From the NCBI GenBank assembly GCA_964652795.1, contig CAZZBF010000007.1:1-61773 (forward strand): 61,773 bases of DNA, written 5' to 3'. The DNA is from an uncultured Syntrophales bacterium. GTDB lineage: Bacteria > Desulfobacterota > Syntrophia > Syntrophales > JADFWA01. Positions 35,034 through 56,587 of this stretch are shown one piece after another. The position numbers were made by a program, and so were the translations under genes. Every line of letters starts with the position of its first letter. The stretch's first letter is position 1. Below the pieces are notes generated by a model that had not been told where the DNA came from, did no database searches, and saw only the letters and a list, made by a program, of their open reading frames with translations.

Positions 35034-36200
35034 ATGAAGATTCATGAGTATCAAGCGAAGGAGATCCTGAAGGAATACGGAATTCCCGTCCCTGAAGGAA
35101 GGGTAGCGAGTACCCCTGAAGAGGCCAAAAAAATAGCCTCCGAAATCGGGGGCGGCAAGGTGGTTGTCAAGGCCCAGATCCATGCTGGTGGAAGAGGAAA
35201 AGGAGGAGGGATAAAACTGGTTTCCTCGCCTCAGGAAGCGGAAGAGGCAGCAAGAGAAATTATCGGTATGCAACTGGTAACACCACAGACTGGCCCTGAG
35301 GGTAAAAAAGTAAAATCCGTACTGGTAGAAAAGGCTGGAGACATCAAAAAAGAACTCTACTTGGGAATAGTAGTCGACCGGTCTCGAAGCACGGAAGAAC
35401 CAGTAGTTATGGCTTCTCAGGCAGGTGGAATGTCGATTGAAGAAGTGGCGGCAGAAAACCCCGAGATGATCATAAAGGTTGCCGCTCATCCCGCAGGAAG
35501 TTTCAGCGGATACCAGGGAAGAAAAATTGCCTACGGTCTCGGGCTGGATAAACCTCTCGTGGGACAGGCATCTAAAATCGTGCAGAATCTTTACCAACTA
35601 ATGCTTGAAAAGGATGCTTCGTTAGTAGAAATTAATCCTCTGATCATCACTGCGGATGATCAACTTGTAGCTCTGGACGCCAAGATAAATTTTGATGATG
35701 ATGGCCTTTTCCGTCATCCGGAAATCTCAGAGTTGCGCGACACTGACGAAGAAGAACCCCTTGAAGTAGAGGCAAAAAATTTAGGGGTAAACTACATAAA
35801 ACTCGACGGAAACGTGGGCTGCATGGTCAACGGCGCGGGGCTCGCCATGACCACCATGGATCTCATAAAACTGGCAGGTGGTGAGCCGGCCAACTTCCTC
35901 GATGTTGGAGGGGGAGCTTCGGCAGAACAGATTGAAAACGCATTCAAAATACTCACCTCAGACAAAAATGTTAAAGCCATACTCGTTAACATCTTCGGGG
36001 GAATCCTCAGGTGTGATCGCTTGGCAAACGGAATCGTTCAAGCGGCAAGTAATCTGGACTTAAAAATTCCGATGGTTATAAGACTTCATGGCACCAATGA
36101 AGCGGAAGGTAAAAAAATCCTAGAGGAATCATCTGTAAAATTTGAAGTTGCTGATGGTCTCTATGAAGCCGCAGAAAAAGCGGTAAATATAGCAAGGTAA
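35034..36200 (+). CDS. sucC: Succinyl-CoA synthetase (ADP-forming) beta subunit
   Basis: [38 protein letters not shown]. Confidence 0.97.
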
Positions 36201-36225: not shown

Positions 36226-37113
36226 GTGAGCATTCTATTAAATGAAGATAGTCGGATAGTAATCCAGGGAATTACTGGAGGTGAAGGGAGCTTCCATACC
36301 CGTGTATCGGTGGAGTTTGGAACCAACGTAGTGGCAGGTGTGACCCCCGGTAAAGGAGGAGCAGACATGGATGGAATCCCTGTCTATAACCGGGTGAGTG
36401 AAGCAGTATCAGAACAAGGGGCTAATGTCGCGGGAATATATGTTCCGGCAGCCTTTACTCCCGATGCCGTTTTAGAAGCCGTCGAAGCGGGGATTAAATT
36501 TGTTGTAGCCCTCACCGAGGGTGTTCCCGTTCTGGAAATGGTTAAGGTAAAAAAGGTCATGAAGGACTATGACGCTTATCTTATTGGACCAAATTGTCCC
36601 GGCATTACGACGCCAGGTGTGGGAAAAATCGGCTTCATGCCTAATTTTATCCACAAAAAAGGTAATGTGGGAGTCATCTCCCGAAGCGGAACTCTGACTT
36701 ATGAGGCGATTGATCAGCTGACCGCTCTGGGAATCGGACAATCAACTTCCATCGGTATCGGTGGTGACCCAATCGTAGGTTCCGGTTTTATAGATCTTCT
36801 GGAGTTGTATGAAAAAGATCCCCAGACGGATCTTATTGTTATGATCGGTGAGATCGGTGGAACCGCAGAGGAAGAAGCCGCTCAGTACGTAAAAGACTAC
36901 TTGACCAAGCCGGTCGTTTCCTTCATAGCCGGTCAGACCGCCCCCCCAGGCAGAAGAATGGGACATGCCGGTGCGATCATCGCCGGAGGAAAAGGAACCG
37001 CCGCTGAAAAGATGGCAGCGCTGACGAAAGCAGGCATAGCGGTAGTAAAGAACCCCGCCGAAATCGGGATAACCGCGAAAAAGATACTCGAAGAACGGGG
37101 GCTGCTTAAATAA
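36226..37113 (+). CDS. sucD: Succinyl-CoA synthetase alpha subunit
   Basis: [26 protein letters not shown] (phospho-His). Confidence 0.97.
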
Positions 37114-37269
37114 ATATAAATCCTCACTCAATTGAAAAGACAGGGGATATCAGATATATTCCGACCGAACCACTGTGAATGTTAGTTAATTGGAAAGGTA
37201 GACAAGCGGAAAAAGCTTAATAAGCCCTGTTTTCAAATAGAGCAGAGGCAAAAGGAAAGGAGGTCTTTA

Positions 37270-37671
37270 ATGAAGGTATCAAAAGTTGATCATATCGGAG
37301 TGGCGGTGAAGAGTATTGAAGAGGCCCTTAAATTGTATGAGGGTATCTTGGGACTAAAATTAGATGAAGTTGAAACAGTTGAAGAGCAGAAAGTCAAAGT
37401 GGCTTTTCTTCCTGTCGGGGATACTGAAGTAGAGCTTCTCGAATCTACCTCGCCCGACGGACCAATAGCCAAGTATATTGAGAAGAAAGGTGAAGGAATG
37501 CAGCATATCGCTTTTCGGGTTGAAAATATAGAAGAGGCTTTGAAAGAGCTCAAAGAGAAAGGTGTTCGCCTCATTGATGAAACACCGAGGATGGGAGCCG
37601 GAGGCGCGAAAATCGCTTTTGTTCACCCGAAAGAGACTTTTGGGGTTATGATAGAGCTGTGCGAAAGATAA
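37270..37671 (+). CDS. mce: Methylmalonyl-CoA epimerase
   Basis: [30 protein letters not shown]. Confidence 0.95.
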
Positions 37672-37726
37672 GATATTTTTAGTTAGATAGTAAATTAACG
37701 TTTTTAACTTAAGAAAGGAGTAGAAT

Positions 37727-39184
37727 ATGAGTAAGCTAAACTTGGAATTAACCGATATCAGGAGTGCCTTTCCTGATGACTTCACGGAAGCTCAGATTGC
37801 TGCGGGACAGACCCTGTTCCTCAAAGCACTCGCCGCCGATGTACACCAATTTTACGGCGGCAAAATGGTAACCGTTCCCAAGTGCGGGTTTTACGGTTTC
37901 AACTGGTACAACGTTTACTATACACCAGGTGTATCAATAGTTTCAACCACCATCAGAGATGACAACAATACATCCTTTGATATTACTAACCGTGGAAACT
38001 ATGTCGCTGTTGTCAGTGATTCTACCAGAGTCCTGGGTGATGGGGACTGTACGCCTCCGGGCGGTCTCGGGGTCATGGAAGGAAAAGCCTTCCTGATGAA
38101 GACCTTGGCAGGTATCGATGCTACCGCGCTGTGTGTCGACAGCAAGAACGCCAAGGGTGAAAATGATCCTGACAAAATAATTGAATTCGTGAAGATGCTT
38201 ACACCCAGCTTCGGCGCAGTCAACCTCGAAGATATTTCTCAGCCGAACTGTTTTAAGGTACTTGATGACCTTCAGGATTGTGATATTCCGGTGTGGCATG
38301 ATGACGCGCAGGGAACAGCTTGTGTAACCCTTGCTGGTCTCCTCAATGCCCTGAAACTTGTTGATAAACCTATCGGCGATATTAACATGGCCTTTTTCGG
38401 CGCCGGCGCCTCAAACACCACCATCGCCCGACTGATTATGCTGGCGGGTGCGGATCCTCAAAGAATCGTCATGTGTGATTCAAAGGGCGGTCTCCATACC
38501 GGTCGCGACAATATCAAAGCCGATCCGAGATTCTATCGTAAATGGGAAATCTGCGAAGCCACCAACCCGAAGAAGGTCGACAACATTGTAGACGCGATGA
38601 AGGGCGCAGATGTGCTTATTGCCCTTTCAACACCGGGACCCGGCGTAATTAAAGGCGAGTGGGTAAAAGACATGGCCGATAAATCCATCGTCTTCGCCTG
38701 TTCCAACCCGGTACCGGAAATTTATCCCTATGAAGCCATCGAAGCAGGCGCCTACATAGTCGCCACAGGAAGAGGAGATTTCCCCAACCAGGTAAATAAC
38801 TCCCTCTGTTTCCCGGGACTCCTGAAAGGCGCTCTCCTCACCAGAGCAAAGGGCGTAACGGACAAAATGGCCGTCACAGCCGCTCGTTCAATCGCCGCGA
38901 CTGCCGAACGTAAAGGCATAACTCCGACGAAGATTTCTCCTCTGATGAACGAACTCGATGTCTTCCCGCAGGAAGCAGCCGACGTGGCCATGCAGGCAAT
39001 AAAAGACGGCGTTGCCAGGGTAAAACCTACAGCGGAAGAGGTCTACAAGAAAACAGAAGAAGACCAGAAAAGTTCAATGGCCATCTATGACAGCTTGCAG
39101 GATTCTGGACTTATTGAAAAAGTACCAATGGATATGCTGGATAAAGCATTGAAGTCAGCTATCGACGGAATACGAAACGGTTAA
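37727..39184 (+). CDS. NAD(P)-dependent malic enzyme (no PTA domain)
   Basis: YTPGV, VMEGKA, NLEDI, WHDDAQGTA, GAGAS, NPVPEI, GRGDFPNQVNN. Confidence 0.93.
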   Translation: MSKLNLELTDIRSAFPDDFTEAQIAAGQTLFLKALAADVHQFYGGKMVTVPKCGFYGFNWYNVYYTPGVSIVSTTIRDDNNTSFDITNRGNYVAVVSDSTRVLGDGDCTPPGGLGVMEGKAFLMKTLAGIDATALCVDSKNAKGENDPDKIIEFVKMLTPSFGAVNLEDISQPNCFKVLDDLQDCDIPVWHDDAQGTACVTLAGLLNALKLVDKPIGDINMAFFGAGASNTTIARLIMLAGADPQRIVMCDSKGGLHTGRDNIKADPRFYRKWEICEATNPKKVDNIVDAMKGADVLIALSTPGPGVIKGEWVKDMADKSIVFACSNPVPEIYPYEAIEAGAYIVATGRGDFPNQVNNSLCFPGLLKGALLTRAKGVTDKMAVTAARSIAATAERKGITPTKISPLMNELDVFPQEAADVAMQAIKDGVARVKPTAEEVYKKTEEDQKSSMAIYDSLQDSGLIEKVPMDMLDKALKSAIDGIRNG

Positions 39185-39265: not shown

Positions 39266-40105
39266 ATGAGAGAAATTTCTTGCGATGAGATTATTAAAGT
39301 AATAAGAGGCCTTTGTATTGACGCCGACTGCAATCTTGGAGATGATGTCGAGGCCGCTTTTGACAGGGCAATCGAAAAAGATGAATCTCCTGTAGCCGTG
39401 GAGGTTATAAAAGAACTGAAGGAGAACTCAAAGATTGCCCGGGAAGAACTGGTCCCAATCTGTCAGGACTGCGGTCTTGCCGTTTTGTTTATTGAACTGG
39501 GGCAGGAAGTTCATATCGTCGGCGGTGACTTCAAAGAGGCCGTTAACGAAGGGGTCAGACAGGGATACGCCGATGGCTACTTAAGAAAATCGGCCTGTCA
39601 TCCCTTTACCCGAAAGAATACCGGAGACAATACCCCGGCCATTATTCACACCGAGATCGTACCGGGAGATAAAATGAAGATAACCATCGCTCCTAAAGGT
39701 GGTGGCAGTGAAAACATGAGCAGGGTAACCATGCTCACTCCCGCTATGGGTATAGAAGGAGTAAAGGATTTTGTTGTGCAAAGATTGGCAGAAGCCGGTT
39801 CCAATCCCTGTCCTCCCACAGTGGTCGGTATAGGTGTGGGTGGAACATTTGAACGCTCGGCATTTCTGGCCAAAAAGGCACTGCTCCGAAAGATAGGGGA
39901 AAGGAATCCCGATCCGGAACTGGCAAAGGTAGAAGAAGAAGTTCTCGAGAGAATCAACAAGCTCGGGATCGGTCCGATGGGATATGGAGGAAACACAACC
40001 TCCCTCGATGTATTATTTGAAATGGAACCATGCCATATTGCCAGCTTACCGTTGGCGGTTAACATTCAGTGCCATGCGGCAAGACATAAAGAGGCTGTTA
40101 TTTAA
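39266..40105 (+). CDS. fumA: Class I fumarate hydratase, alpha (Fe-S) subunit
   Basis: PICQDCG, KGGGSEN, NPCPP, QCHAARH. The TCA context favours fumarase over tartrate dehydratase. Confidence 0.88.
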   Translation: MREISCDEIIKVIRGLCIDADCNLGDDVEAAFDRAIEKDESPVAVEVIKELKENSKIAREELVPICQDCGLAVLFIELGQEVHIVGGDFKEAVNEGVRQGYADGYLRKSACHPFTRKNTGDNTPAIIHTEIVPGDKMKITIAPKGGGSENMSRVTMLTPAMGIEGVKDFVVQRLAEAGSNPCPPTVVGIGVGGTFERSAFLAKKALLRKIGERNPDPELAKVEEEVLERINKLGIGPMGYGGNTTSLDVLFEMEPCHIASLPLAVNIQCHAARHKEAVI

Positions 40106-40254
40106 CGATTACTTAATCAAACCACATATTACTCTATAATAGTGTTCTTTAGCATGATATTTTGTCACGTTGTGAGTGCAAATGATTGAGCGGTTGTACG
40201 CTAAAAATACTTCATAAGTTGTGGTTTAGGGAAGTACTAACGCTGGAGGGAAAA

Positions 40255-40812
40255 ATGTCAGAACAGATAAAATTGACTACCCCGCTTTCTGATGAAGACG
40301 TGGAAAAGTTGAATATTGGAGATAAGGTATTCTTGACTGGTACCATCTACACCGGAAGGGATGCCGCCCATAAAAGATTAGTAGATTTGCTCGATGAGGG
40401 CAAGGAACTGCCTATCGATGTCAAAGGTCAGGTAATTTACTATGTTGGGCCAGCGCCTGCCAAACCCGGACAGGCAATCGGTTCTGCCGGTCCCACAACC
40501 AGTTACCGCATGGATGCCTATGCCTATAGGCTTATGGAGTTGGGGCTGAAAGGAATGATTGGTAAGGGAAACCGTGCCCCGGAAGTTATCGAGGCCATGA
40601 AAAAACATAAAACGGTATACTTCGGTGCTACCGGAGGAGCAGGTGCCCTTATTGCTAAAAGCATAAAAAAGGCAGAAATTGTTGCCTATGAAGACCTCGG
40701 ACCCGAGGCCCTCCGGAAATTAGAGGTAGAAAATTTTCCGGTAGTGGTAGTTAACGATGTCAGGGGAGGAGATCTTTACGTTGAAGGAGCTAAAAAATAT
40801 CGGAAAGAGTAA
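40255..40812 (+). CDS. fumB: Class I fumarate hydratase, beta subunit
   Basis: GRDAAHKR, GPTTSYRM, GMIGKG, GGAGAL. Confidence 0.88.
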   Translation: MSEQIKLTTPLSDEDVEKLNIGDKVFLTGTIYTGRDAAHKRLVDLLDEGKELPIDVKGQVIYYVGPAPAKPGQAIGSAGPTTSYRMDAYAYRLMELGLKGMIGKGNRAPEVIEAMKKHKTVYFGATGGAGALIAKSIKKAEIVAYEDLGPEALRKLEVENFPVVVVNDVRGGDLYVEGAKKYRKE

Positions 40813-41082
40813 ATCAACCGACTAATAGAACGTTTCATCAATGGATCCACAACGGCATTTGCAATTACGGAGGGTTATGAAGTAGTTTTATTGCTTTATT
40901 CTGTCTTATGTGGTTTTAAGTTTTCTTCTTTTCTACACAGTATGTCCATTGCAAGCTCATAAAGGCTTACCTATGGAACGTTCCATTAGATAGATTGTTT
41001 TTCCTATTTTTTGCTCAATGCTTAACGAATAAAGAAAGATTTATTGAAAATTCTTTATAATTTTAATGAGGGGATGGAAGAT

Positions 41083-42828
41083 ATGGTAAATTTGGGATAC
41101 ACTAATAAGACAGAAGTGGTTACGCATGACGTCTTGATCTTTGGTACAGGACTGTCCGGGTTTCGGGCAGCACTGGAGATTGCCCAGAAAACTAAGGACT
41201 CGGTAAATATGGGCCTTCTCTCCAAGGTTCAGATCCAGCGTCCCCACTCGGTATGTGCCGAAGGTGGTTCGGCAGCGGTTATGCGAGAGGATCAGGGTGA
41301 CAACTTTGATATTCATGCATGGGACACCGTCAAGGGCGCAGACTTCCTGGCAGACCAGGATGTGGTATATCACTTTGTGGAAAATTCCCCCAAAGAGATC
41401 TTGCAGATGGACCACTGGGGAATGCCCTGGTCAAGAACCGAAGACGGCAGGCTCAAACAGCGCCCCTTCGGAGGACACAGTTATCCTCGAGCCACCATGG
41501 CTGCGGACAAGACTGGTTTCTTTGAAATACAGGTTCTCTATGATACCCTTTTGAAGTATAAGAATTTCTGCCGGTATGATGAATTCTTTGTCACCTCTAT
41601 CTTAACGGATAAGAAGGGTGATTTTGCCGGTGTTACGGCAATAGACATGTGTACCGGAAAATTCTACGTTATGCGTGCCAAGGCTATGCTCATTGCTACT
41701 GGTGGTATTGGAAACCTTTACAGTTTCACCACCTATTCCCAGACCGTTACAGGGGATGGCCATTTGGCAGCATACCGTGCCGGGTTGAACCTTGAGGATT
41801 CAGAGTTTCTCCAGTTTCACCCCACCGGTCTAATCCCTAGCGGTATTCTTATGACCGAAGCGTGTCGTGGTGAAGGAGGGTATCTCAGAAACTCTAATGG
41901 TGACAGATTTATGGACAAATATGCCCCGGATAGGATGGAGCTGGCACCCCGTGATCTCGTCTCTCGCTCTATGATAACCGAGATTTTAGAAGGCCGAGGT
42001 TTTAAAGGACCCGAAGGGTTGGATTATCTCCATCTGGATCTTACTCACCTGGGAGCAGACCATATCAACAGTGTCCTGCCATTAATCCGGGAGGTTTGTC
42101 TTGATTATATCGGACTTGATCCTATCGAGAAACCGATCCCGGTACGTCCTGTTGCCCATTACTCCATGGGAGGAATCGAGGCAGATATCAACGGAGCAAC
42201 TAAGATGAAAGGTGTCTGGGCAGCGGGAGAATGCGCCTGTTATTCTCTCCACGGCGCCAACCGCCTCGGTTGTAATTCCACAATGGAGTGTATTTTATGG
42301 GGAAGGTTTACCGGCGAAGAGATAGTGAAATATCTTGATACAAACCCGCCACTGGCAGATATGCCGTCAGACAAAGTTGATGCGGAATACAAGCGTCTCT
42401 ATATTGATCTCCTACAAAAGAAAGGTAAAGAAAATCTTTACGATATCAAAACGGAACTCAGGAGAACAATGGGTGAACATGTAGGGGTCTATCGTACCGG
42501 ACAAGGCCTAAGTGATGGGTTGAAAAAAATCAGGGAACTGCAGAAACGATTTAAAGACATCTATATTCAGGACAGTGGTCATGTGTACAATAACAATATG
42601 ATCAATGCCCTTGAGACTGAAAACCTCCTTGATCTGGCCGAAGGATTGGTTTCGGCGGCACTGGCCCGTGAGGAATCCCGAGGGGGACATGCCCGTACTG
42701 ATTTTCCGGTTCGTGACGATGAAAACTGGCTCAAACATACACTGATAAGCTATACTAAAGATGGGCCAAAACTTAGCTACAAACCAGTAACGATCACCAA
42801 ATGGTTACCGGTAGAACGTAAATACTGA
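41083..42828 (+). CDS. sdhA: Succinate dehydrogenase/fumarate reductase flavoprotein
   Basis: HSVCAEGG (covalent FAD His), [33 protein letters not shown]. Confidence 0.95.
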
Positions 42829-42838
42829 GGAGAAGAAA

Positions 42839-43276
42839 ATGGAAAAAAAGAGATACGATAATCACCTCGAACTTTGGGGTTGGCTAGGAGGCGGTAAATG
42901 GGGAATAGAGCGCTATCTATATACCCTTCACCGGATCACAGGAGTAGGTATCCTGCTTTTCTTCATGATCCACATATTTGAGAGTTCTACCAGAATCTTT
43001 GGCATGAAGACGTGGGACATTATTATGAAAGGTATGGAATTCCCTGTTTTTAAGATCGGTGAAGTTTTGGTCTTTACAGCATTCGCCTTTCATGCCTTGA
43101 ATGGAATCCGGCTTATTCTGATTGAACTGGGATTTATGGTAGGAAAACCAGAACAACCGGTCTATCCGTACCAATCATCACTGAATGTACAGCGCCCAAT
43201 GATGATGGTAATAATGGTAATAGTTGTCGTTCTCATATTAGCTGGAGGCGTCGACATTATCTTTCTACATAAATAG
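42839..43276 (+). CDS. sdhC: Succinate:quinone oxidoreductase cytochrome b subunit
   Basis: LHRITG, FMIHIF, AFHALNG; three TM segments. Confidence 0.85.
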   Translation: MEKKRYDNHLELWGWLGGGKWGIERYLYTLHRITGVGILLFFMIHIFESSTRIFGMKTWDIIMKGMEFPVFKIGEVLVFTAFAFHALNGIRLILIELGFMVGKPEQPVYPYQSSLNVQRPMMMVIMVIVVVLILAGGVDIIFLHK

Positions 43277-43294: not shown

Positions 43295-43672
43295 ATGAAT
43301 AAAAGTGGACCTTGGATATTGTTCATTGTTGCGGCAGTTGTAATTTTTGTCTTTCTCGGGTTGCACATGATGATTGTTCATCTGGATACCCTCCTTGGAG
43401 GAATCGGCAGTCCCGCAGGGGGTTCGGCTCTTGCCTGGGAGAATGTAATTCAGCGAAGCCAATCTAACTTTTTCACTGTTACTTACATTATTTTATTGGC
43501 AGCAGCGCTCTACCACGGATTTTACGGGCTACGTACCATCATATTTGAATTTGGCCCCAGAAAAGAGGCCGAGGGAGCTTGGACCACCTTCTTATGGATA
43601 GTAGGCATCGTTCTTTTCATCGTTGGCACCGTTGCTGCTATCGCGGTACGAACAGTACAAACAGCACTTTAG
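43295..43672 (+). CDS. sdhD: Succinate:quinone oxidoreductase hydrophobic anchor subunit
   Basis: GLHMMIVH, LYHGFYGLR; three TM segments. Confidence 0.8.
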   Translation: MNKSGPWILFIVAAVVIFVFLGLHMMIVHLDTLLGGIGSPAGGSALAWENVIQRSQSNFFTVTYIILLAAALYHGFYGLRTIIFEFGPRKEAEGAWTTFLWIVGIVLFIVGTVAAIAVRTVQTAL

Positions 43673-43685
43673 AAAGGATAAGAAA

Positions 43686-44501
43686 ATGGCAACCAATATT
43701 ACCTATAATATTAAACGTTTTGATCCTGAGAAGGATGAGGGTCCACGGTGGCAACAGTTTACCGTGCCGGTGGAACCTGGGATGACTGTGCTGGACGGTT
43801 TGCACTGGATTAGAGAAAATCAGGATGCGTCCCTTGCCTGGCGTTATTCCTGTCGGATGGGGGTATGCGGTTCCTGCGCCATGTTGATAAATGGAACACC
43901 ATGTATGGCCTGTAATACCCAGATTCTGCACGTAACTGATCGTGTGTTAACCATTGCACCTCTTCCAAACTTTAATGTAATTAAAGACCTGGTACCGGAC
44001 TTAATACCAATGTTAGAAACACACGCTTCCATCTTTCCTCAAATCGAGCGAACGGACGTCCAGGAGATGGAAAATCCCACGGCAGAATACATACAATCCG
44101 TCGAGGAGCTTGAAAGGTACCTTCAGTTCACCTATTGCATGAAGTGTGGCTGTTGTATTGCAGCCTGCCCTGGGTCGGCTACAGACCGGAATTATCTTGG
44201 ACCGATGCCTCTTACACAGGCGTACCGCTATAGTGTGGATACCCGTGATGATGGTCAGAAAAAGAGAAACGCTAAAGTGAGTGAACCTCACGGTGTTTTC
44301 AGCTGCCATTATGCAGGAGAGTGTTCCAAAGTATGCCCCAAGGGAGTTGACCCGGCACGGGCTATCCAACTGATGAAAAAAGACCTGGTTTTAGGTTATC
44401 TGAAACTTCAGGGCGCAAAAAAACCGGCAAAGTTAGTAGGTCCTCCGAGTGGTGAAACCAAACCGAAGATTGAGGCCCCCGCATTTACGGTAGAACAGTA
44501 A
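43686..44501 (+). CDS. sdhB: Succinate dehydrogenase/fumarate reductase iron-sulfur subunit
   Basis: CRMGVCGSC..C [2Fe-2S], CMKCGCC..ACP [4Fe-4S], CHYAGEC..VCP [3Fe-4S]. Confidence 0.95.
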   Translation: MATNITYNIKRFDPEKDEGPRWQQFTVPVEPGMTVLDGLHWIRENQDASLAWRYSCRMGVCGSCAMLINGTPCMACNTQILHVTDRVLTIAPLPNFNVIKDLVPDLIPMLETHASIFPQIERTDVQEMENPTAEYIQSVEELERYLQFTYCMKCGCCIAACPGSATDRNYLGPMPLTQAYRYSVDTRDDGQKKRNAKVSEPHGVFSCHYAGECSKVCPKGVDPARAIQLMKKDLVLGYLKLQGAKKPAKLVGPPSGETKPKIEAPAFTVEQ

Positions 44502-44726
44502 AAACGGATGGAAAATCCGAACAGTTTTATTTGCCCTTTTGAAGATAACCAAAATATTTGTTTAAGTATGGAAAGAGGACTCTGAGAGCGAAAAATATTT
44601 TGAGCATCGAAGAGTCCTTTTTCAAATTATTACCGAGTGAAAATTTACTCCGCTCGGTTTGTTCTAATCAGGCACATTTTCTCGAATTTACAAAAGTTGA
44701 ACCAAATACAAATAAGGAGGTGTCTT

Positions 44727-46349
44727 ATGGCTGAGGAGATGGGAGCAAAATGGACCACCACTGAAGAGTGGGCTCTTGAAAGAGAAAAGAAGTATAACGA
44801 AGTTAAGGAAAAGTATAAAGATAAAAAATGGCCTGAGCTGACCACAGAGGAGAAATATGAAATTTTTGAAGCTCGCAAGGCCGTCCTGGAACGGATGGGT
44901 GGTGTAAGGGGAATAAATCGGCAACATGACAGAGGCAAGTATACGGTAAGGGAAAGAGCAGATAAACTGTTTGACCCGGGATCATTTGTCGAAATTGGAT
45001 TGCATTGTAAATCCTCATGTCTTTCGTACGATTTGTATAAGGTTGCCTCCGAGGATATGCCCGCGGACGGTATTCTGGCAGGTTACGGACTCGTCGACGG
45101 AAGGCCGGTATATGCCTTCTTCCAGGATTTTACAACATGGGGAGGAACACTGGGAAAAACACATGCGGAAAAGATTAAAAGAGTTTCCGGTGAGGCTGTA
45201 CAGAACAATTGTCCTATCGTCTATATTGCCGACTCCGGTGGCGCCAGGATACAGGAGGGAACTGACTCCCTGGCAGGATACGGTGACCTGTTCTACGTAA
45301 ACAGCATATATTCCGGCTGTGTTCCGCAACTTTGCGGCATAATAGGACCATGTGCCGGAGGAGCCGTTTATTCTCCTGCGCTGATGGATTGTATCTTCAC
45401 GGTAGAAGGTGAAACTGAAATGTTTATCACCGGGCCCATAGTTATAAAGGCTGTTTTGGGGCAGGAAGTCGGAAAGGAAGAACTTGGCGGTGCAAGAGTA
45501 AACTGTGAGCGAAGTGGAAACGCTGCATTTTTTGCAAAGGACGAAGATGAATTTATAGCACAGCTGAAGAAACTGCTCAGCTTCCTGCCGGGTAGTGCCA
45601 AGCAGAAGCCTCCCTACGTAGAAACCGGCGATTCACCGGACAGGACTACACCGGAGTTAAGGAAAATAATACCTGACAGTCTGAATGAGCCATTTGATAT
45701 GAAGAAGATCATTGAAACAGTCGTCGACAATGGTGACTTTCTTGAATGGCAGGAACTCTTTGCGCCGAGCCTTATATGCGCCTTTGCCAGAATGAATGGA
45801 AATTCGGTAGGAATAATAGCGCAGAATCCGATGCATCTTAATGGTGATGTTACAATGGACTCCGGCGACAAGGGATCAAAATTTATGAGACTGTGTGATG
45901 CTTACAACTTACCTCTTATAAGTTTTATCGATGCGTCAGGGTACGCTGTCGGAAAGGAGCAGGAGGTAGGAGGGATAATCAGACATAACGCGAAGCTGAT
46001 CCAGGCTTACGCCGAAGCTACAGTCCCCAAAATTACTATTATTACAAGAAAGGCATTTGGAGGACCAGCTTTACTCGGTTCTAAAAATCTTGGTGCTGAT
46101 TTAGTCTTGGTATGGCCAACATGTGAGATGGCTGCTGCGAGTCCTGAGCAGGCCGTGAGTGTTATCGGTGGAGATGAGATGGATTACAGAAATCACTTCT
46201 CAGATCCGGCTGTACCGGCAACAAAGCTGCACATTGACGAAATCATAGATGCTGCTGACACCAGGCCTCTTATATGTAAGGCGCTTAATATGTTCGAGCA
46301 GAAATCTGTCGATCTGCCTTACAAGAAACATAACATCAAGCCGCATTAG
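44727..46349 (+). CDS. Acyl-CoA carboxyltransferase paralog 1 (PccB/MmdA/transcarboxylase 12S family); canonical N-domain, degenerate C-domain
   Basis: DSGGARIQEG and GPCAGGAVYSPA are intact; C-domain motifs altered (DASGYAVG, RHNAK, AFGGPALLGSK). AAGGAGG RBS before ATG 44727. Confidence 0.9.
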   Translation: MAEEMGAKWTTTEEWALEREKKYNEVKEKYKDKKWPELTTEEKYEIFEARKAVLERMGGVRGINRQHDRGKYTVRERADKLFDPGSFVEIGLHCKSSCLSYDLYKVASEDMPADGILAGYGLVDGRPVYAFFQDFTTWGGTLGKTHAEKIKRVSGEAVQNNCPIVYIADSGGARIQEGTDSLAGYGDLFYVNSIYSGCVPQLCGIIGPCAGGAVYSPALMDCIFTVEGETEMFITGPIVIKAVLGQEVGKEELGGARVNCERSGNAAFFAKDEDEFIAQLKKLLSFLPGSAKQKPPYVETGDSPDRTTPELRKIIPDSLNEPFDMKKIIETVVDNGDFLEWQELFAPSLICAFARMNGNSVGIIAQNPMHLNGDVTMDSGDKGSKFMRLCDAYNLPLISFIDASGYAVGKEQEVGGIIRHNAKLIQAYAEATVPKITIITRKAFGGPALLGSKNLGADLVLVWPTCEMAAASPEQAVSVIGGDEMDYRNHFSDPAVPATKLHIDEIIDAADTRPLICKALNMFEQKSVDLPYKKHNIKPH

Positions 46350-46381
46350 AACCTGAAAAAAGAGAAAGGAGGTTGTTCCAG

Positions 46382-47959
46382 ATGGCTAGTGAAAAAACAT
46401 TCGCAGAAATGTCAACATTAGAAAAGTCTGATTTTTTGAAAAGTGAGCAGGCAAGAATCTATGAAATGGGCGGAGCAGAGGCAGTAAAGCTCCAGCATGA
46501 CATGGGGAAATATACAGCAAGGGAACGGATAGAAAAATTGTTTGACCCCGGGTCCTTTTTCGAAATAGGGGAATTCTGCAGATCGGTAACACCGCATTAT
46601 GACATATTCAAGGAGGCACCACCTGCCGATGGCGTAGTAACAGGATACGGGACTATTAACGGAAGGGTTGTTTATGGTGCCTTCCAGGATGCTACGGTCA
46701 TGGGTGGAACACTTGGGATTATACATGCCGACAAGATAGTGAGAGTCCTTCAGGAAGCCAACAATGTCGGATGTCCGATGCTCTATCTCGTCGACTCAGA
46801 AGGATTGAGGATAAAGGAAGGGCCCGATTCCCTGGCCGGTCTCGGAGATTTGGTGTATAATATGACCCTCTATTCAGGAGCCATTCCTCAGATTTGTGCC
46901 GTTATGGGAACATGCTCGGGCGGAATGACAATTGTCCCGGGACTCGCAGACTGTGTATTCACCGTGGATAAGATAACCAAGATGTACGCCAACGCCCCGA
47001 CAACGATAGCTGCCGCTACCGGCGAAGAAGTCGGAGATGAAGATATCGGTGGAGCGGCTGTTCACTGCGGAAAAAGCGGTGTCGGCACATTCTTGACCAA
47101 GAGCGAAGATGAGTGTCTCGAACAAATAAAAAGGTTTCTCAGCTTTCTACCGGGCAGCGCCAAGGAAAAACCGCCCTATGTTGAAACGGGTGATCCTGCG
47201 GATAGGATATCAGAAGCACTGGCGACGATTGTACCCGACAAAGCAACACGTCCCTTCAATATGAAGAAAGTGATCGGTGAAGTCGTGGATAACGGAGACT
47301 TTATGGAGTGGCAGGACAGATATGCCAGAAATCTTATATGTGCTTTAGCCAGAATGGATGGAAATACGGTAGGCATACTGGCACAGAATCCTATGGTTAT
47401 GGCGGGCTGTCTCGATGTTGACTGTTCCGATAAGGGCTCCAGGTTTATCAGGTTCTGTGATGCCTATAATATACCTATACTCAATCTTGTTGATGTCCCG
47501 GGATATCTTCCGGGAACGGATCAGGAGTGGAACGGCATAATTAGACATGGCGCAAAAATGCTCTTCGCCTATTCCGAAGCGACCGTGCCTGAAATAACTG
47601 TCGTTACACGAAAGGCATACGGAGGTTCTTACCTGGGCATGTGTTCCAAAGACGTCGGTGCAGATGTAGTTATGGTATGGCCTCCATGTGAAATGGCGGT
47701 TATGGGACCATCGGGCGCAGTGGGTATCATTGAGCGTAAAGCGATAAAAGAAGCGGAAGATCCTGCCGTAAAGAAAGATGAATTAACTATAGAGTACGTA
47801 AACCGCTTCCTCGTACCTACGGCTCCGGCAGCAAATCTGAATCTGGATAAAGTTATAGATCCTGTACAAACAAGACCGTTAGTTTGCAGGGCTCTTAAAC
47901 TGTTCAAAAATAAGGACCTAAAGCTGCCGTACAAGAAGCATGAAGTTATGCCGGAATAA
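46382..47959 (+). CDS. Acyl-CoA carboxyltransferase paralog 2 (PccB/MmdA/12S family); degenerate N-domain, canonical C-domain
   Basis: DVPGYLPG, RHGAK, RKAYGGSYLGMC and MAVMGP are intact; N-domain motifs altered (DSEGLRIKEG, GTCSGGMTIVPG). Confidence 0.9.
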   Translation: MASEKTFAEMSTLEKSDFLKSEQARIYEMGGAEAVKLQHDMGKYTARERIEKLFDPGSFFEIGEFCRSVTPHYDIFKEAPPADGVVTGYGTINGRVVYGAFQDATVMGGTLGIIHADKIVRVLQEANNVGCPMLYLVDSEGLRIKEGPDSLAGLGDLVYNMTLYSGAIPQICAVMGTCSGGMTIVPGLADCVFTVDKITKMYANAPTTIAAATGEEVGDEDIGGAAVHCGKSGVGTFLTKSEDECLEQIKRFLSFLPGSAKEKPPYVETGDPADRISEALATIVPDKATRPFNMKKVIGEVVDNGDFMEWQDRYARNLICALARMDGNTVGILAQNPMVMAGCLDVDCSDKGSRFIRFCDAYNIPILNLVDVPGYLPGTDQEWNGIIRHGAKMLFAYSEATVPEITVVTRKAYGGSYLGMCSKDVGADVVMVWPPCEMAVMGPSGAVGIIERKAIKEAEDPAVKKDELTIEYVNRFLVPTAPAANLNLDKVIDPVQTRPLVCRALKLFKNKDLKLPYKKHEVMPE

Positions 47960-51726: not shown

Positions 51727-52566
51727 TCAATATTCCCTCGTAAGTTCATCAAGTTCAGCCAGCGAAAAAATGGGACCATCCTTACAGACATACTTACTGC
51801 CAACATTGCATCGTCCACATTTACCGATCCCGCACTTCATTCGCATCTCAAGAGAAGTAATTATATTTTCTCTCGAAAAACCTAACTCAAAAAAAACCGG
51901 CAGTGTGAAACGAATCATAATCGGAGGGCCAGATATCAGGGTCACGGCATTTTCAGAGCTCGGCCCGACTTCCTTGCACACTGTCGGAACAAACCCTTCC
52001 CTACCCTTCCAGGTTTCATCTCCTTTATCCACCGTAACATACATGTTAATATCTTCTCTCTTTTCCCAGAAGGAAAGTTCGTCTTTATACATCAAAAGAC
52101 CGGGAGTCCTTGCCCCATATACAACAGTAATATCCCCGAACCGCGACCTGTTAGTGTCGTGAATCATATAGTTAGTCAGAGACCTGAGAGTGGTAAAGGC
52201 AAAACCGCCGCCAACCACAACAACGTTTTTCCCCTCAAGATACTCAATAGGCCACGAATTACCCAAGGGACCTCTAAGCCCAATCCGAGTGCCCTCATCA
52301 AGATTATGGAGCGCAGTGGTGACAACACCCGCCTTCTGAACTGTAAACTCAAGATAGTCCGGCTGAGTCGGCGACGACGCAATACCGATCGGAGATTCCC
52401 CCTTGCCGAAGACAGAAAGCTCGGCAAACTGTCCCGGTAGATACTCGAAGAGTTCTTTTTCGTTTTTATTAGCGAAAACCACACGAAACGTCTTGATATC
52501 TTTCGTGTCCACCTCAGTTATGATTTTTTCCACATCAACAGGAATCGGCACATATGGATTCTGCAT
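51727..52566 (-). CDS. flxA: FAD/NAD-binding oxidoreductase, FlxA/AsrB-like
   Basis: PGQF, GLRGPLGN, GGGF, GPPIM, MKCGIGKCGRC [2Fe-2S]. Confidence 0.85.
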   Translation of the reverse strand: MQNPYVPIPVDVEKIITEVDTKDIKTFRVVFANKNEKELFEYLPGQFAELSVFGKGESPIGIASSPTQPDYLEFTVQKAGVVTTALHNLDEGTRIGLRGPLGNSWPIEYLEGKNVVVVGGGFAFTTLRSLTNYMIHDTNRSRFGDITVVYGARTPGLLMYKDELSFWEKREDINMYVTVDKGDETWKGREGFVPTVCKEVGPSSENAVTLISGPPIMIRFTLPVFFELGFSRENIITSLEMRMKCGIGKCGRCNVGSKYVCKDGPIFSLAELDELTREY

Positions 52567-52811
52567 TACTATCTCCCAAGAAAAATTTTCATAACCCCAG
52601 AAAGTTCTGATGCTATAGCACTCAAACATTTAGATTTTCTTAACGCCGGTTACTACTAGCATCTTTTTCCCAAAATACTTGAATGACTTGCGTGATTCTT
52701 CGAATGCGCTCCGAAAAGACTTTTTACAAATTTGTCAAGACATAGAATTGTGAAGCTCCGCCCTTTGGGCGGAAGCTCCCCGGTAAGGAAAATGTTTTGA
52801 GCATCGAAAAA

Positions 52812-53852
52812 TCATATTTCCAGAGCTTTCAACTCAGATATGTCTTCAATTATCTTTCTTATATCTATATTGACGGGACAGTACATCACACATCTACCGC
52901 AACCCACGCAGGAAATGGCCTTAAAATTATCCACATAATATTTAAACTTGTGCATAACCCTCTGTCTCCATCTCTCCTTTTGCGACGGCCTGGGATTATG
53001 ACCTGAGGTTTCATACGTAAACAACCAGTACATGCAGGAATCCCAGGATCTTATTCTTTTTCCATTATCCCCTTTCTCCTCATCACTGATATCGAAGCAG
53101 TGACAGGTGGGACAGAGATAAGTACAGGTACCACAGGCAATACAGCTTCTATGAATTGTATCCCAGAAGGGATGTTCGAAATTTTCATCCAGCCAAGTCT
53201 TTATTTGCATCGCAGGAACATGAGATTTAATTTCTTTCTCTGCATTGTCAGAAAGTTCTTTCTTCTTTTCCACCGCTGAATCCTCGGCCTTTGGAAGACC
53301 TTCCATCTTTTTTAGAAGCTTCTCACCTTTTGATGTTATAAATTCGGCTAAATAACTATCCCCAATATCGGTCAACATTACATCCGCGCCGTCGGAAGAC
53401 ATGGGATGTCCTCCTACCGATGTACAGAAACAGGTAGTATAGGGGGGATGAACACAGGCAAATGACACAACGGTGGTCTTTTCTCTCTTGTCAATATAAT
53501 AAGGATCTCTGTAAGTTTCTTGATCGAAAACCATATCCAGAAGAACAAAGCTGCGGGCGTCGCACGGTCGGACACCGAAGAGCACTGCCTTTCCGGCTTC
53601 GCCATTATCTTTTGAAAGTTCCGTTCCTCTTTCAGTTTTCATATATCTCATCATTGTTTCCGTCTGAGGAAATAAAAAATTCTTTGGTGAATTCTTGGCA
53701 TTGAGGTAACCCACAAGTGGTTCCACTCCATTTTCCAAAAGCTTAAAAAGAATATCATCGCCACTCCTGACCGGCGCATAAACCGGCATTTCTTCAGAAA
53801 TTTTCTTTATAATATCGGTAAGAACTTTCTTATTTATCAGTCTCTTTTCCAT
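52812..53852 (-). CDS. flxB: 4Fe-4S dicluster protein, FlxB/AsrA-like
   Basis: GVRPCD, CFCTSVG, CIACGTCTYLCPTCHCF, CVGCGRC. Confidence 0.8.
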   Translation of the reverse strand: MEKRLINKKVLTDIIKKISEEMPVYAPVRSGDDILFKLLENGVEPLVGYLNAKNSPKNFLFPQTETMMRYMKTERGTELSKDNGEAGKAVLFGVRPCDARSFVLLDMVFDQETYRDPYYIDKREKTTVVSFACVHPPYTTCFCTSVGGHPMSSDGADVMLTDIGDSYLAEFITSKGEKLLKKMEGLPKAEDSAVEKKKELSDNAEKEIKSHVPAMQIKTWLDENFEHPFWDTIHRSCIACGTCTYLCPTCHCFDISDEEKGDNGKRIRSWDSCMYWLFTYETSGHNPRPSQKERWRQRVMHKFKYYVDNFKAISCVGCGRCVMYCPVNIDIRKIIEDISELKALEI

Positions 53853-54030
53853 AACGTTCCTTAATAGTTTACTTCAAAAATACTATTGCGATGAAGAATC
53901 CATCTCCCCTTCCCTCTCCCCGAGAACTTTGAAAAATATAATTCTTCGTTGCTCAGCCTATGGTAAGTTTTGCAAAGTTTACCCCTTAAGGGAGAAATAT
54001 TTGGCTGGGGTGAATCGTTTTGAGTTTTTT

Positions 54031-54879
54031 TCACGCAAGTCCCAAAGAGTTAAGAAGAGGTCTCGGGTCAAAATTGTGCATTTTAAACCATTTATCGGTT
54101 CCTTCCAAACCCATTGCCAGAGCTATTAATTCGGTAAAATAAAACGCCGGAAGCCTCACACCCTCACTTGCCCTCATATCCAGATTTGCCATACAGATCG
54201 GACAGGCAGTAACCAGACAATTGGCACCGGCTTCTCTTGCCATCTTCATCAACTTATCCACCAGATGAACAACAACTTCAGTTTTGCCCAGGGTAAGACT
54301 TCCACCACAGCAATCCGTCTTATAGGACCAGGGGCGGTATTCAGCGCCGAGGCTTCCCATAATTTTATCCATCATATATGGATTTTCATAATCATCAAAA
54401 TCGCAGATATCCGGTGGTCTCAGCAACAGGCATCCATAATACGAAACCGGTTTCAGACCTTTTAGCTCTCTGAACACCAATTCACTCAACTTTTCAGGGC
54501 CAATATCATTATGGACAATATCTATAGGGTTTCTCACGGCAACAGTACCATTATATTTTTTACCGATAATCTCTTCCACTTCCGTCCTTAATTTCTCATC
54601 TTCTTTGAGGCGATATTGTGCCGTCTTAAATCGGTTAAAACAGGCGGCACAAGGAACCATTATATCAAAGCCTTTTGTCTCCGCAATAATGATATTTCTG
54701 ATAGGAAGGGCGATGGATAGTTTAAAATTAGTCATGTGCGCGGAAGAGGCACCACAGCATGACCAATCATCAATCTCTTGCAAATCAATCCCCAAAGCTT
54801 TACTGACAGCCCGAACCGATTGATCATATTCCTTCGCTGTAGCGTGAAGTGAACATCCCGGGTAATATGAAACTTTCAA
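54031..54879 (-). CDS. hdrB: Heterodisulfide reductase subunit B
   Basis: Two CCG domains (YYPGCSL...CCG; YYGCLL...CCG...CPIC); GAGGAG then TTG at 54879. Confidence 0.92.
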   Translation of the reverse strand: MKVSYYPGCSLHATAKEYDQSVRAVSKALGIDLQEIDDWSCCGASSAHMTNFKLSIALPIRNIIIAETKGFDIMVPCAACFNRFKTAQYRLKEDEKLRTEVEEIIGKKYNGTVAVRNPIDIVHNDIGPEKLSELVFRELKGLKPVSYYGCLLLRPPDICDFDDYENPYMMDKIMGSLGAEYRPWSYKTDCCGGSLTLGKTEVVVHLVDKLMKMAREAGANCLVTACPICMANLDMRASEGVRLPAFYFTELIALAMGLEGTDKWFKMHNFDPRPLLNSLGLA

Positions 54880-54938
54880 TATATACTCCTCGATTGCATC
54901 AGGATAGTTCTGCAATTTCTTTACTGATACACTCTAAG

Positions 54939-55463
54939 CTATCTTTTTGTTTTCTCAAATATCTTTTTTACCGATCTCATATTTTTTGTCCTGGGAGAAA
55001 ACAGGGAAAGTTTGCCTTTTATAAACATACTTATACCCATCGCTATGTCGGAAAAGTAATCACCCGATTTGAACTTATAATTGAGAATCATAAGAGGCTC
55101 ATTGATACGCCCTAATATTCTTACATTTGATAGGAAAGCCTCATGGAATCTCAGCATGCGTTTCTCCTTGACATCAACACCCGCCTCTCGTGCCACCTCT
55201 CTTAAGACATCCATCATACGGGCTATATCAACTTCATTGGGACAACGTGTTATACAGGTCTCACACGAGGCACACAACCAGATGGCAGAACTATTCAGTA
55301 CCTCATCCCTTTTATCCATCTGAATCATTTTTATGATTGTATCAGGATTGTAATCCATAGCAAATGCTACGGGACACCCAGCCGTACACTTTCCACAGTG
55401 ATAACATCTCTGTACGGGCACACCGTCTATTCTACTGTTTACTTCTCCCAGAAAAGTTTCCAT
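54939..55463 (-). CDS. hdrC: Heterodisulfide reductase subunit C
   Basis: CYHCGKCTAGCP and CASCETCITRCP. Confidence 0.9.
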   Translation of the reverse strand: METFLGEVNSRIDGVPVQRCYHCGKCTAGCPVAFAMDYNPDTIIKMIQMDKRDEVLNSSAIWLCASCETCITRCPNEVDIARMMDVLREVAREAGVDVKEKRMLRFHEAFLSNVRILGRINEPLMILNYKFKSGDYFSDIAMGISMFIKGKLSLFSPRTKNMRSVKKIFEKTKR

Positions 55464-55496
55464 ATTTAATCTATTTACACATCTTTGATCTGAGCT

Positions 55497-56516
55497 TTAT
55501 TCAGGCTCAAACACAAAATCCTGGCCATCGTCCTCTCTGAAAGTGGCAAGCGGCGCGGGTTGGTCAAGCACAACCCCCACCCTGTGATTAAACAGTTCAA
55601 ACCCATCCTTATCCAGCTTTTTCAAGAACTTCCTCAGATCCACACCCATGGGACATACCTCAGCACAGGCGCCACAATCAACACAACGTCCTGCCATGTG
55701 AAACATTCTCATGATTTGAAACACCTGTGTGTCCGCATCATCTATACCGATTCCCACCCAACCGGGTTGACTCTGTTCCACAAAACAGATTTTGCAATAA
55801 CAGGAAGGACAGGTATTTCGACAGGCATAACAGCGTATACATTTTTTCATCTCACCAACGAAATACTTCCAGCGTTCGGCCAACGACAGCTCTTCAAACT
55901 CGTCGACTCCGGTGTATTCATGATCGGCATCCATCGGCTCAGCCTCTTCACTTACCATCACATCTGAAATGACCGGATTGTTAAATCGACAGGTAAGGCA
56001 GCTATCGGAAAGAACCTCTCCCAATGAAACAACTTTATTACCGCCGTTAGTTTGAATTGACAATTTTCCCCCATCAATTGTGGCTTGCAACACTTCCTCA
56101 CCATTTACGAGCTTTGCAACCTTTCTCTTTGCCACGTAACCGGTACAGGGAACGCCCAGAATAACCACTTCATCCCTGTCATATTGCTTTTCCTGAAGGT
56201 GAATTACCAGGGATCGGGAAGTACATCCTTTCGCAACAACGCCTACAACTTTTTTTGTCCTCTCTTCCGATTTAGCCATTTTTTGCGATTCTTTATGGCG
56301 AAAAAGCAGATCGTGTACATACTTGGCCAGATTCTGCGAACAGTAAGGATTCCAGACAAGCCTTTCCGCGTCATCGGGCTCAGTTATAAAGCACGGCGCA
56401 GTGAGAAGAGGAAGTGTGCCTTTTTCATACCCCACAACTATATCCACTTTTTTTTCAGCTAACAGCCTTTTTGCCTCTTCCCTCAATCGCTTTTCTATAC
56501 TTTCCACTATCCCCAC
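55497..56516 (-). CDS. flxC: 4Fe-4S dicluster protein, FlxC-like
   Basis: CIRCYACRNTCPSCYC, HMAGRCVDCGAC..VCP; lies between mvhD-like and hdrC. Confidence 0.75.
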   Translation of the reverse strand: MGIVESIEKRLREEAKRLLAEKKVDIVVGYEKGTLPLLTAPCFITEPDDAERLVWNPYCSQNLAKYVHDLLFRHKESQKMAKSEERTKKVVGVVAKGCTSRSLVIHLQEKQYDRDEVVILGVPCTGYVAKRKVAKLVNGEEVLQATIDGGKLSIQTNGGNKVVSLGEVLSDSCLTCRFNNPVISDVMVSEEAEPMDADHEYTGVDEFEELSLAERWKYFVGEMKKCIRCYACRNTCPSCYCKICFVEQSQPGWVGIGIDDADTQVFQIMRMFHMAGRCVDCGACAEVCPMGVDLRKFLKKLDKDGFELFNHRVGVVLDQPAPLATFREDDGQDFVFEPE

Positions 56517-56587
56517 AATTTCCTTCAGAATTATATTTTCAAGATTTTCCCTGTCGCCCTCTTATCCCTGACCCCGTCAATCTGTCG

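Follow-up and report, generated by a model that had tools for sequence, protein, structure and literature searches.

Biotin-dependent carboxyltransferases (CTs) of the PccB/12S type are textbook homohexamers with six equivalent shared active sites. Each of these sites spans an inter-layer dimer, the acyl-CoA-binding N domain coming from one subunit and the biotin-binding C domain from the other. Here we describe two tandem genes of this type, par1 and par2, found in a contig of an uncultured Syntrophales bacterium (GenBank assembly GCA_964652795.1, contig CAZZBF010000007.1, positions 1 to 61,773; this whole stretch of 61,773 nucleotides is what we call the window). In each of the two proteins one half of the site is canonical and the other is remodelled, and the remodelled halves are complementary. 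In the published structures, the pair G182-G183 from one of the beta subunits and the pair G419-A420 of a beta subunit of the opposite layer lie in one site, where oxyanion hole 1 takes the acyl-CoA carbonyl and oxyanion hole 2 the ureido carbonyl of biotin (bioRxiv 10.1101/2024.04.30.591959; bioRxiv 10.64898/2026.02.06.704326). LCC, the mycobacterial carboxylase of long-chain acyl-CoA, has a PccB-type CT hexamer made of two paralogous beta subunits, AccD4(2)AccD5(4) (PMC13012033; bioRxiv 10.64898/2026.02.06.704326). Its catalytic inter-layer dimers are the homodimers AccD4-AccD4 and AccD5-AccD5, and the two paralogs differ in chain-length specificity (bioRxiv 10.64898/2026.02.06.704326). All six sites of LCC have both oxyanion holes, and the asymmetry of the complex is set by AccE (PMC13012033; bioRxiv 10.64898/2026.02.06.704326). 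In our literature searches LCC was the only described heteromeric assembly of this CT type, and they turned up no description of a reciprocally degenerate or half-dead CT pair.

The initial annotation of the window, made from the letters alone, had characterized par1 and par2 by short motifs, intact in one domain and altered in the other. All of the quoted motifs were found, and they are listed here with the other features of the pair. PccB numbering, here and below, was taken from a HMMER alignment to the PccB of Streptomyces coelicolor (3ibb).

44727-46349, + strand: par1, a 540-aa PccB/12S-type CT, its N (acyl-CoA) domain canonical, its C (biotin) domain remodelled
44727-44861, + strand: par1-specific N-terminal extension of about 45 aa, MAEE.GAKWTTTEEWA...
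45231-45260, + strand: par1 N-domain loop DSGGARIQEG, canonical
45345-45380, + strand: par1 N-domain GPCAGGAVYSPA, canonical, including the two glycines of oxyanion hole 1 (PccB G182-G183)
45420-45437, + strand: par1 N-domain MFITGP, canonical
45930-45953, + strand: par1 C-domain DASGYAVG, in place of the invariant D-V-P-G-[YF]-L-P-G loop
45981-45995, + strand: par1 C-domain RHNAK (canonical RHGAK)
46053-46079, + strand: par1 C-domain AFGGPALLG, with Pro447 (nt 46065-46067) at the PccB A420 position of oxyanion hole 2
46131-46154, + strand: par1 C-domain AAASPEQA, in place of the invariant A-V-M-G loop (PccB 443-446)
46161-46199, + strand: site of a 15-residue par1 deletion relative to par2 helix 461-476, in the subclade of the window only
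46350-46381, + strand: par1-par2 spacer, containing the ribosome-binding site AAGGAGG
46382-47959, + strand: par2, a 525-aa CT (528 aa from TTG 46373), its N domain remodelled, its C domain canonical
46793-46822, + strand: par2 N-domain DSEGLRIKEG, with G142E, A144L and Q147K (PccB numbering), each in 8/8 sequences of the par2 clade
46907-46942, + strand: par2 N-domain GTCSGGMTIVPG, Gly-Gly kept, invariant A181, A184, Y186, S187 and A189 replaced
46982-46999, + strand: par2 N-domain MYANAP, in place of the invariant F-I-T-G-P
47492-47515, + strand: par2 C-domain DVPGYLPG, canonical
47615-47644, + strand: par2 C-domain AYGGSYLGMC, canonical oxyanion hole 2 (G-S), with a 12S/MmdA-like Leu at PccB 422
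47696-47710, + strand: par2 C-domain AVMGP, canonical

In each protein the alterations lie in the active-site loops of one crotonase-fold domain: three N-domain loops in par2 and the three homologous C-domain loops in par1. Oxyanion hole 1 and the N-domain loops (DSGGARIQEG, GPCAGGAVYSPA, FITGP) are complete in par1. In its oxyanion hole 2 the Pro claimed by the initial annotation at the A420 position is indeed there: it is Pro447, and the alignment places a Pro at this position in 12/12 par1-clade sequences. Besides, G419 is changed to Ala in 3/12 of them, and Y421, P377/P381, G394 and A443-G446 are replaced; in the AFGGPALLG segment Tyr421 is lost and one residue is deleted after Pro447. In par2 it is oxyanion hole 2 and the C-domain loops (DVPG.LPG, RHGAK, YGG[AS]Y, AVMG) that are complete, the canonical RHGAK included, and 14-15 of the 44 family-invariant N-domain columns that are replaced. 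Oxyanion hole 1 itself is not abolished in par2, since the G182-G183 pair is retained (as G-A in a deeper subclade of the pair, described below). As for position 422, D422 is a specificity point in the T. fusca paper. The C-domain helix of par1, announced as about 18 residues shorter than that of par2, is actually 15 residues shorter, and this deletion is confined to the window and its close relatives L001 and L002; by alignment, only 3 residues are missing at the same site in par1 of the deeper subclade.

Both proteins are full-length two-domain CTs. They are 51% identical over 525 aligned residues, i.e. over their whole length, and both match PF01039 (Carboxyl_trans) through its N and C crotonase-fold domains (par1, E 4e-143, model positions 1-491 of 493; par2, E 1e-150, positions 2-492 of 493). 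The sequence matches of both in the PDB included PccB, 12S, 1vrg of T. maritima and 3n6r (PCC-beta), with E values of 1e-127 to 1e-148. The AlphaFold2 monomers had a pLDDT (predicted local distance difference test score) of 86.9 for par1 and 85.6 for par2, with predicted TM-scores (pTM) of 0.89 and 0.88, and the par1 model was superposed on 1vrg, human PCC-beta (7ybu_C), 12S (1on3) and PccB with Foldseek TM values of 0.88-0.94. Thus, the predictions leave the two-domain fold complete in par1 and par2 alike. The best-scoring NCBIfam family was TIGR01117, the mmdA subfamily, for both par1 (595.5 bits) and par2 (645.4 bits), in both cases well below the curated cut-off of 998.8. This, together with the 5S-biotin-carrier gene present in operons of relatives, agrees with the 12S/MmdA affinity that had been proposed from the GGSYL.MC motif.

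A strong ribosome-binding site, AAGGAGGTG, lies 6 nt upstream of the par1 ATG at 44727, and AAGGAGG (46365-46371) lies 10 nt upstream of the ATG at 46382. From the position of the latter, ATG 46382 is a likelier start for par2 than TTG 46373, and orthologs beginning with MAEK... agree. Depending on the start, the par1-par2 spacer is 23-32 nt long in the window, and it is 23-46 nt at the orthologous loci; so short a spacer implies co-transcription. The N-terminal extension of par1 is charged and present in all full-length par1-clade sequences, and it is found neither in par2 nor in the canonical sister group. The AlphaFold2 model has a helix at residues 13-29 of this extension. By a loose analogy with the helices of AccE/PccE, the extension may have a role in assembly or in docking of a partner.

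The mirror image was quantified over an alignment of 227 sequences plus PccB, in which the 192 columns at least 90% conserved among 206 canonical CTs served as test columns. A deviation was counted where the consensus of a clade departs from the conserved column, and the bias between domains was evaluated by Fisher test. The par1 clade has 12 sequences, including P0001-P0008 and the genome loci L001-L003, and the par2 clade has 8, including P0121-P0124. Of the deviations confined to the par2 clade, 22 fall in the N domain and only 2 in the C domain (p = 1e-5); of those confined to the par1 clade, the corresponding numbers are 4 and 19 (p = 0.0014). Chance does not account for the reciprocal alteration first read from a handful of motifs. 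When the columns were those invariant in the 192 CTs outside the sister group, the N/C deviations were 3/9 for par1, 14/2 for par2 and 1/0 for the sister group. The pattern is therefore robust to the conservation threshold, with the sister group as a negative control. Specifically, A144, N163, A181, Y186, S187, I205, T206 and G207 are present in 206/206 canonical CTs and replaced in par2, and P377, P381, G394 and A443-V444-M445-G446 are present in 206/206 and replaced in par1. Y421, also replaced in par1, is Tyr in 202 and Phe in 4 of the canonical CTs. Position 420 is only Ala (120) or Ser (86) in the canonical CTs. An exhaustive search with the par1 C domain gave Pro at this position in 1 of 149 representatives, that one being a fragment of the par1 family, and this profile-free search returned no further family of par1-like degenerate C domains.

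The initial annotation had named the orthologs as a test of its reading: they should show the same reciprocal pattern. We have carried out this comparison over the 12 par1-clade and 8 par2-clade sequences, and in every ortholog found, from three metagenome-assembled genomes (MAGs) and from metagenome contigs, the mirror pattern, the tandem order and congruent phylogenies were recovered. In every locus with enough sequence (L001-L009) par1 is immediately followed by par2, and the genes were never found apart. The peptide KWTTTEEWA of the par1-specific N terminus was found in 3 of 185,579 species genomes, namely in MAGs of a Syntrophales, a Thermodesulfobacteriota and a 'Deltaproteobacteria' bacterium, whose par1 is 95%, 85% and 66% identical, respectively. 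The nearest canonical relatives are common to par1 and par2. They are the 520-aa proteins P0009-P0021, one of them annotated as from a Chloroflexi MAG, which have both domains intact and are 58-64% identical to par1 and to par2. Neighbour-joining (NJ) bootstrap was 100% for the group of par1, par2 and this sister group, and for each of the par clades. The par1 and par2 trees have the same shape, ((window, L001), L002) against the L003 type, which corresponds to the deeper subclade (L004, L006, L003+L018). A side observation concerns P0125, a 761-aa protein with carboxyl-transferase domain from a Solirubrobacterales MAG, which scores against par2 as high as the sister group does and is about 240 residues longer.

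The evolutionary rates follow the same division. Between the window and L003 the par1 N and C domains are 78% and 63% identical and those of par2 57% and 81%; the comparison figures for the sister group are 87% (N) and 85% (C). The ratio of nonsynonymous to synonymous changes (dN/dS, Nei-Gojobori) was between 0.03 and 0.16 in all four domains, indicating that both genes are kept by selection and that neither is a pseudogene. In the degenerate domains the values were 0.06-0.16, about 1.5 to 2 times those of the intact domain of the same protein, and so the altered domains are relaxed yet far from neutral. The dS was saturated between the window and L003. Since several of the replacements are invariant across this dS-saturated divergence, the pair appears to represent a stable old state and not a transition. 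The initial annotation had seen in it a snapshot on the way towards a split like that of AccA/AccD, and this part is not supported: the degenerate domains are full-length, confidently folded and constrained. We have accordingly rejected the idea of a transition to such a split, and an evolutionary path between the par1/par2 state and the AccD/AccA split finds no support in the data.

We propose, with a probability of roughly 0.7, that par1 and par2 form a hetero-oligomer with canonical hybrid sites of the N(par1)+C(par2) type. They would be the two subunits of a biotin-dependent methylmalonyl-CoA/propionyl-CoA carboxyltransferase, and in the methylmalonyl-CoA pathway of the operon their complex would be the counterpart of 12S. 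A canonical gene would have been duplicated in tandem, with par1 keeping the canonical N domain and par2 the canonical C domain. In a par1:par1 dimer, both sites would then be defective in the biotin half, and in a par2:par2 dimer both would be remodelled in the acyl-CoA half. Since par1 keeps the one domain and par2 the other, an all-canonical site would be formed only in the par1:par2 dimer, whose two sites would be N(par1)+C(par2), canonical throughout, and a second one remodelled in both halves. Three such heterodimers joined in a hexamer, which would have three working sites, are the simplest assembly. From the reciprocal sites, N(par2)+C(par1), residues shared by all canonical relatives would be missing, and so would the NH that the backbone offers at A420. 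Most likely these are not carboxyl-transfer sites and would be kept for the fold and the assembly, possibly with a secondary binding role. The core of the initial annotation, in which no canonical site exists in the homomers and N(par1)+C(par2), not the reverse combination, supplies one, is the best-supported reading. The conserved reciprocal pattern, the purifying selection on the two genes, their joint inheritance and their replacement of the single CT are observed; co-assembly, stoichiometry and substrate are inferred, and so is the lack of activity in the homomers and at the second site.

The genomic context agrees with this assignment. The window carries a methylmalonyl-CoA-pathway cluster, of which par1-par2 is the last part:

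31598-32572, - strand: MeaB (Pfam/NCBIfam)
32594-32992, - strand: methylmalonyl-CoA mutase, B12-binding subunit (Pfam/NCBIfam)
33012-34691, - strand: methylmalonyl-CoA mutase, catalytic subunit (Pfam/NCBIfam)
35034-36200 and 36226-37113, + strand: succinyl-CoA synthetase beta and alpha
37270-37671, + strand: glyoxalase protein of methylmalonyl-CoA epimerase type
37727-39184, + strand: malic enzyme, 485 aa (Pfam Malic_M, malic)
39266-40105 and 40186-40812, + strand: class I fumarase alpha and beta
41044-42828, 42839-43276, 43295-43672 and 43623-44501, + strand: succinate dehydrogenase/fumarate reductase A, C, D and B

Of all the results, the comparison of gene order is the most telling. In six MAGs of Syntrophaceae/Syntrophales type with a single CT (L015, L017, L019, L031, L034, L040) the order is sucCD, epimerase, CT and 5S/BCCP (the 5S subunit and the biotin-carrier protein), mostly followed by fumAB and sdhACDB, and the single CT of these operons carries all the canonical motifs. 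The canonical sister group also has one CT gene, adjoining a 5S-BCCP fusion. In the deeper pair-bearing subclade, par1-par2 stands at the head of the operon and is followed by sucCD, epimerase, a gap of about 0.5 kb, 5S/BCCP, fumAB and sdh. Compared with the single-CT loci, the 5S/BCCP of this subclade has an identity of 88-90% to the proteins of L015 and L017 and of 72-82% to those of the others; in L004 and L006 it is a protein of 674-679 aa with HMGL-like, PYC_OADA and Biotin_lipoyl domains. A remnant of a displaced CT was sought with tblastn, both in the epimerase-5S gap of the loci L004 and L006 and over positions 37000-37800 of the window, with no significant match. The pair-bearing relatives thus have an empty CT slot and carry par1-par2, which means that the single CT has been replaced by the pair. 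In function, the pair therefore takes the position of the single 12S-type CT of methylmalonyl-CoA:pyruvate transcarboxylase.

The window, L001 and L002 differ from this arrangement in that a malic enzyme fills the slots of CT and 5S/BCCP and par1-par2 stands at the tail of the operon; the counterparts of the malic enzyme slot are the regions 8111-10150 of L004 and 6107-9560 of L015. With a malic enzyme at this place, the lineage of the window may bypass oxaloacetate, taking malate directly to pyruvate.

Several side observations can be added on these operons. Between the epimerase and 5S-BCCP genes, L004 (7720-7896) and L006 (6791-7030) have a small conserved open reading frame (ORF) of 58-79 aa (...DPKIMAAITAAISAYLAEEW...CPQCGY.KRITLS) with no Pfam match on record, which fills the slot where the single-CT genomes have the CT gene. 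When the 679-aa 5S-BCCP was used as a tblastn query, many Syntrophaceae loci (L014-L034) matched over residues 1-540 only and others over 1-676; the biotin-carrier domain may thus be fused in some Syntrophaceae genomes and separate or divergent in others. The intergenic region between sdhB and par1 in the window (44502-44726) is 225 nt long and contains at approximately 44578-44622 an inverted repeat, GGACTCT...AGAGTCC, followed by TTTTT, which the terminator scan missed because of its long loop. Judging from its sequence, it may be an internal terminator or attenuator, so that par1-par2 may be expressed apart from the sdh genes.

A number of observations weigh against the hetero-oligomer with hybrid sites. 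With the G182-G183 pair kept in par2, and with the G-A state of the deeper par2 subclade found also in the active AccD4 (bioRxiv 10.64898/2026.02.06.704326), the N(par2) half is not provably dead. The monophyly of par1 and par2 had an NJ bootstrap of only 48-59%, and the other support for it is only two shared rare substitutions at near-invariant positions, Q340N and F366Y. In the window and in L001-L003 there is no biotin-carrier or 5S gene, and in the window subclade the malic enzyme sits in their slot. A six-frame scan of the window and L001-L003 for the biotinyl motif [AS]MK[MLVAT] gave one irrelevant match and no carrier protein, and when the L004 5S-BCCP was queried against the species genomes, the L001 and L002 MAGs were not among the 80 loci listed, an absence that is weak, the MAGs being incomplete and the patterns being exact peptides only. 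Besides, since the genomes are MAGs, a canonical CT may exist elsewhere in them. Finally, the replacements that are invariant within a clade (9/22 in par2 and several in par1) could reflect a new function rather than a loss.

This last point leads to the alternative that survives best, distinctly less probable than the reading above, in which the heteromer is formed in the same way and the N(par2)+C(par1) site is not dead, having acquired a new function. Such a site could be an allosteric site for a CoA ester or another ligand, a parking or docking site for the biotin carrier, or a site for a different acyl-CoA. E142, L144, K147, L156, M163, G189, Y204 and A205 are found in 8/8 par2 sequences across the deep split, as Pro420 is in all of par1, and this speaks for a new site, along with the low dN/dS of the degenerate domains (0.06-0.16) and the Gly-Gly retained at oxyanion hole 1 of par2. 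However, over the same evolutionary distance the degenerate domains have clearly changed more, with identities of 57-63% as opposed to 78-81% in the intact ones. The remaining 13/22 par2-specific replacement columns and most of the par1 loop positions vary among orthologs, which fits relaxation better than a new precise site, and the gene context suggests no candidate ligand. In its most elaborate form, which we consider doubtful, this alternative would be an obligate alpha3-beta3 CT in which the three N(par2)+C(par1) pseudo-sites were recruited to a new role and the N-terminal helix of par1 helps to specify the hetero-assembly. Examples of such a role would be the binding of a CoA ester as allosteric effector or the holding of the biotin-carrier domain between half-reactions.

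It is rather improbable that par1 and par2 each assemble with themselves, whether as two homo-oligomers or at homodimeric sites inside a mixed hexamer, and are active on different substrates in spite of their non-canonical halves. Mixed CT hexamers with homodimeric, paralog-specific sites do exist, as in AccD4(2)AccD5(4) of LCC (PMC13012033; bioRxiv 10.64898/2026.02.06.704326), and paralogous CTs often differ in specificity. Both LCC paralogs, however, keep both oxyanion holes, whereas the losses of par1 and par2 are complementary, with invariant residues gone from one half of each. A par1 homodimer would have Pro420 and the loss of P377, P381, G394, Y421 and AVMG in every one of its sites, and the constant association of the two genes also speaks against independent enzymes. 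That one copy is a decaying, functionless duplicate, its work done by a canonical CT elsewhere in the genome, is barely credible even if incomplete MAGs leave room for another CT, given that both ORFs are intact at all loci and retained across a dS-saturated divergence with dN/dS of 0.03-0.16 (on which the pseudogene reading was rejected), and that the CT slot of the operon is empty in the pair-bearing relatives with no detectable remnant.

Two other regions of the window can be mentioned. On the - strand at 51727-61501 there is an electron-transfer cluster, with a 1476-aa HdrA-like fusion that has multiple FAD/NAD and 4Fe-4S domains, and with MvhD/FlpD-type, CCG-domain (HdrB-like) and ferredoxin-like proteins and an NAD-binding Fe-S protein of DHODB type. 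We take this cluster to be typical of the flavin-based electron-bifurcating systems of syntrophs and sulfate reducers. Positions 1-31500 are devoted to surface-polysaccharide biosynthesis, with glycosyltransferases, a DegT aminotransferase, a UDP-GlcNAc 2-epimerase, a flippase-like protein and a PseB/FnlA-like dehydratase, and the ORFs at 4632-5429, 5907-6707 and 6738-8213 had no Pfam match. The G+C content of this polysaccharide region is 0.38-0.42, versus 0.45-0.49 in the metabolic cluster.

If the hetero-oligomer with hybrid sites is real, the pair is a clear natural example of the passage from a homomer to an obligate heteromer by complementary degeneration, within one and the same pathway operon. 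If the pseudo-sites do have a role of their own, it would be the first PccB-type CT with a built-in half-of-sites architecture and a regulatory pseudo-site. At present both genes receive generic annotations such as acyl-CoA carboxylase beta or carboxyltransferase subunit. Neither would be expected to work alone, be it in metabolic reconstructions of propionate-metabolising Syntrophales-like bacteria or when cloned singly. The pair raises the question whether a CT works with half of its sites, and what its pseudo-sites are for. Other enzyme families offer precedents for the concept, and the pair is confined to a rare uncultured lineage; with three species-level MAGs, its ecological weight is small.

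Among known systems, the pair can first be compared with the 12S subunit of Propionibacterium freudenreichii subsp. shermanii (1on3) and with MmdA. It shares with them the two-domain crotonase fold (Foldseek TM 0.89-0.93, E 1e-127 to 1e-143), the best-matching family TIGR01117 and, in par2, the GGSYL.MC motif of the C domain. The operons of its relatives and of the sister group have the 5S and biotin-carrier proteins, the composition expected of methylmalonyl-CoA:pyruvate transcarboxylase; these were found in L004, L006 and the sister group and not in the window, L001 or L002. The difference is that 12S is a homohexamer from one gene with six equivalent sites, whereas here two genes take the place of the single CT gene, and each of their products has one half-site remodelled. 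LCC, with its two paralogous PccB-type subunits, is the closest known case. Unlike those of LCC, the changes in par1 and par2 are complementary, which would lead to heterodimeric sites and to three predicted non-canonical ones, and there is no small AccE-like gene adjacent to par1-par2, so that, by sequence and adjacent genes, the pair does not fit the LCC type. AccD/AccA, MadC/MadD and MdcD/MdcE also obtain the acyl-CoA half and the biotin half from different polypeptides, and the accD and accA models match par1 and par2 weakly, each in the half that corresponds to it. Those systems, however, consist of single-domain polypeptides and have no pseudo-site, whereas par1 and par2 keep both domains full-length under purifying selection.

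Finally, heteromers of paralogs with one live and one degenerate shared site are known from the NAD-isocitrate dehydrogenase of yeast (IDH1/IDH2), heterodimeric ABC exporters with a degenerate ATP site, and the deoxyhypusine synthase of trypanosomatids. An experimental framework for such heteromers is to be found in PMC10888846. Folds and chemistry are unrelated to those of par1/par2, and the evolutionary logic alone is shared: a homomer with a shared site was duplicated, the copies underwent complementary losses, and the heteromer became the functional unit.

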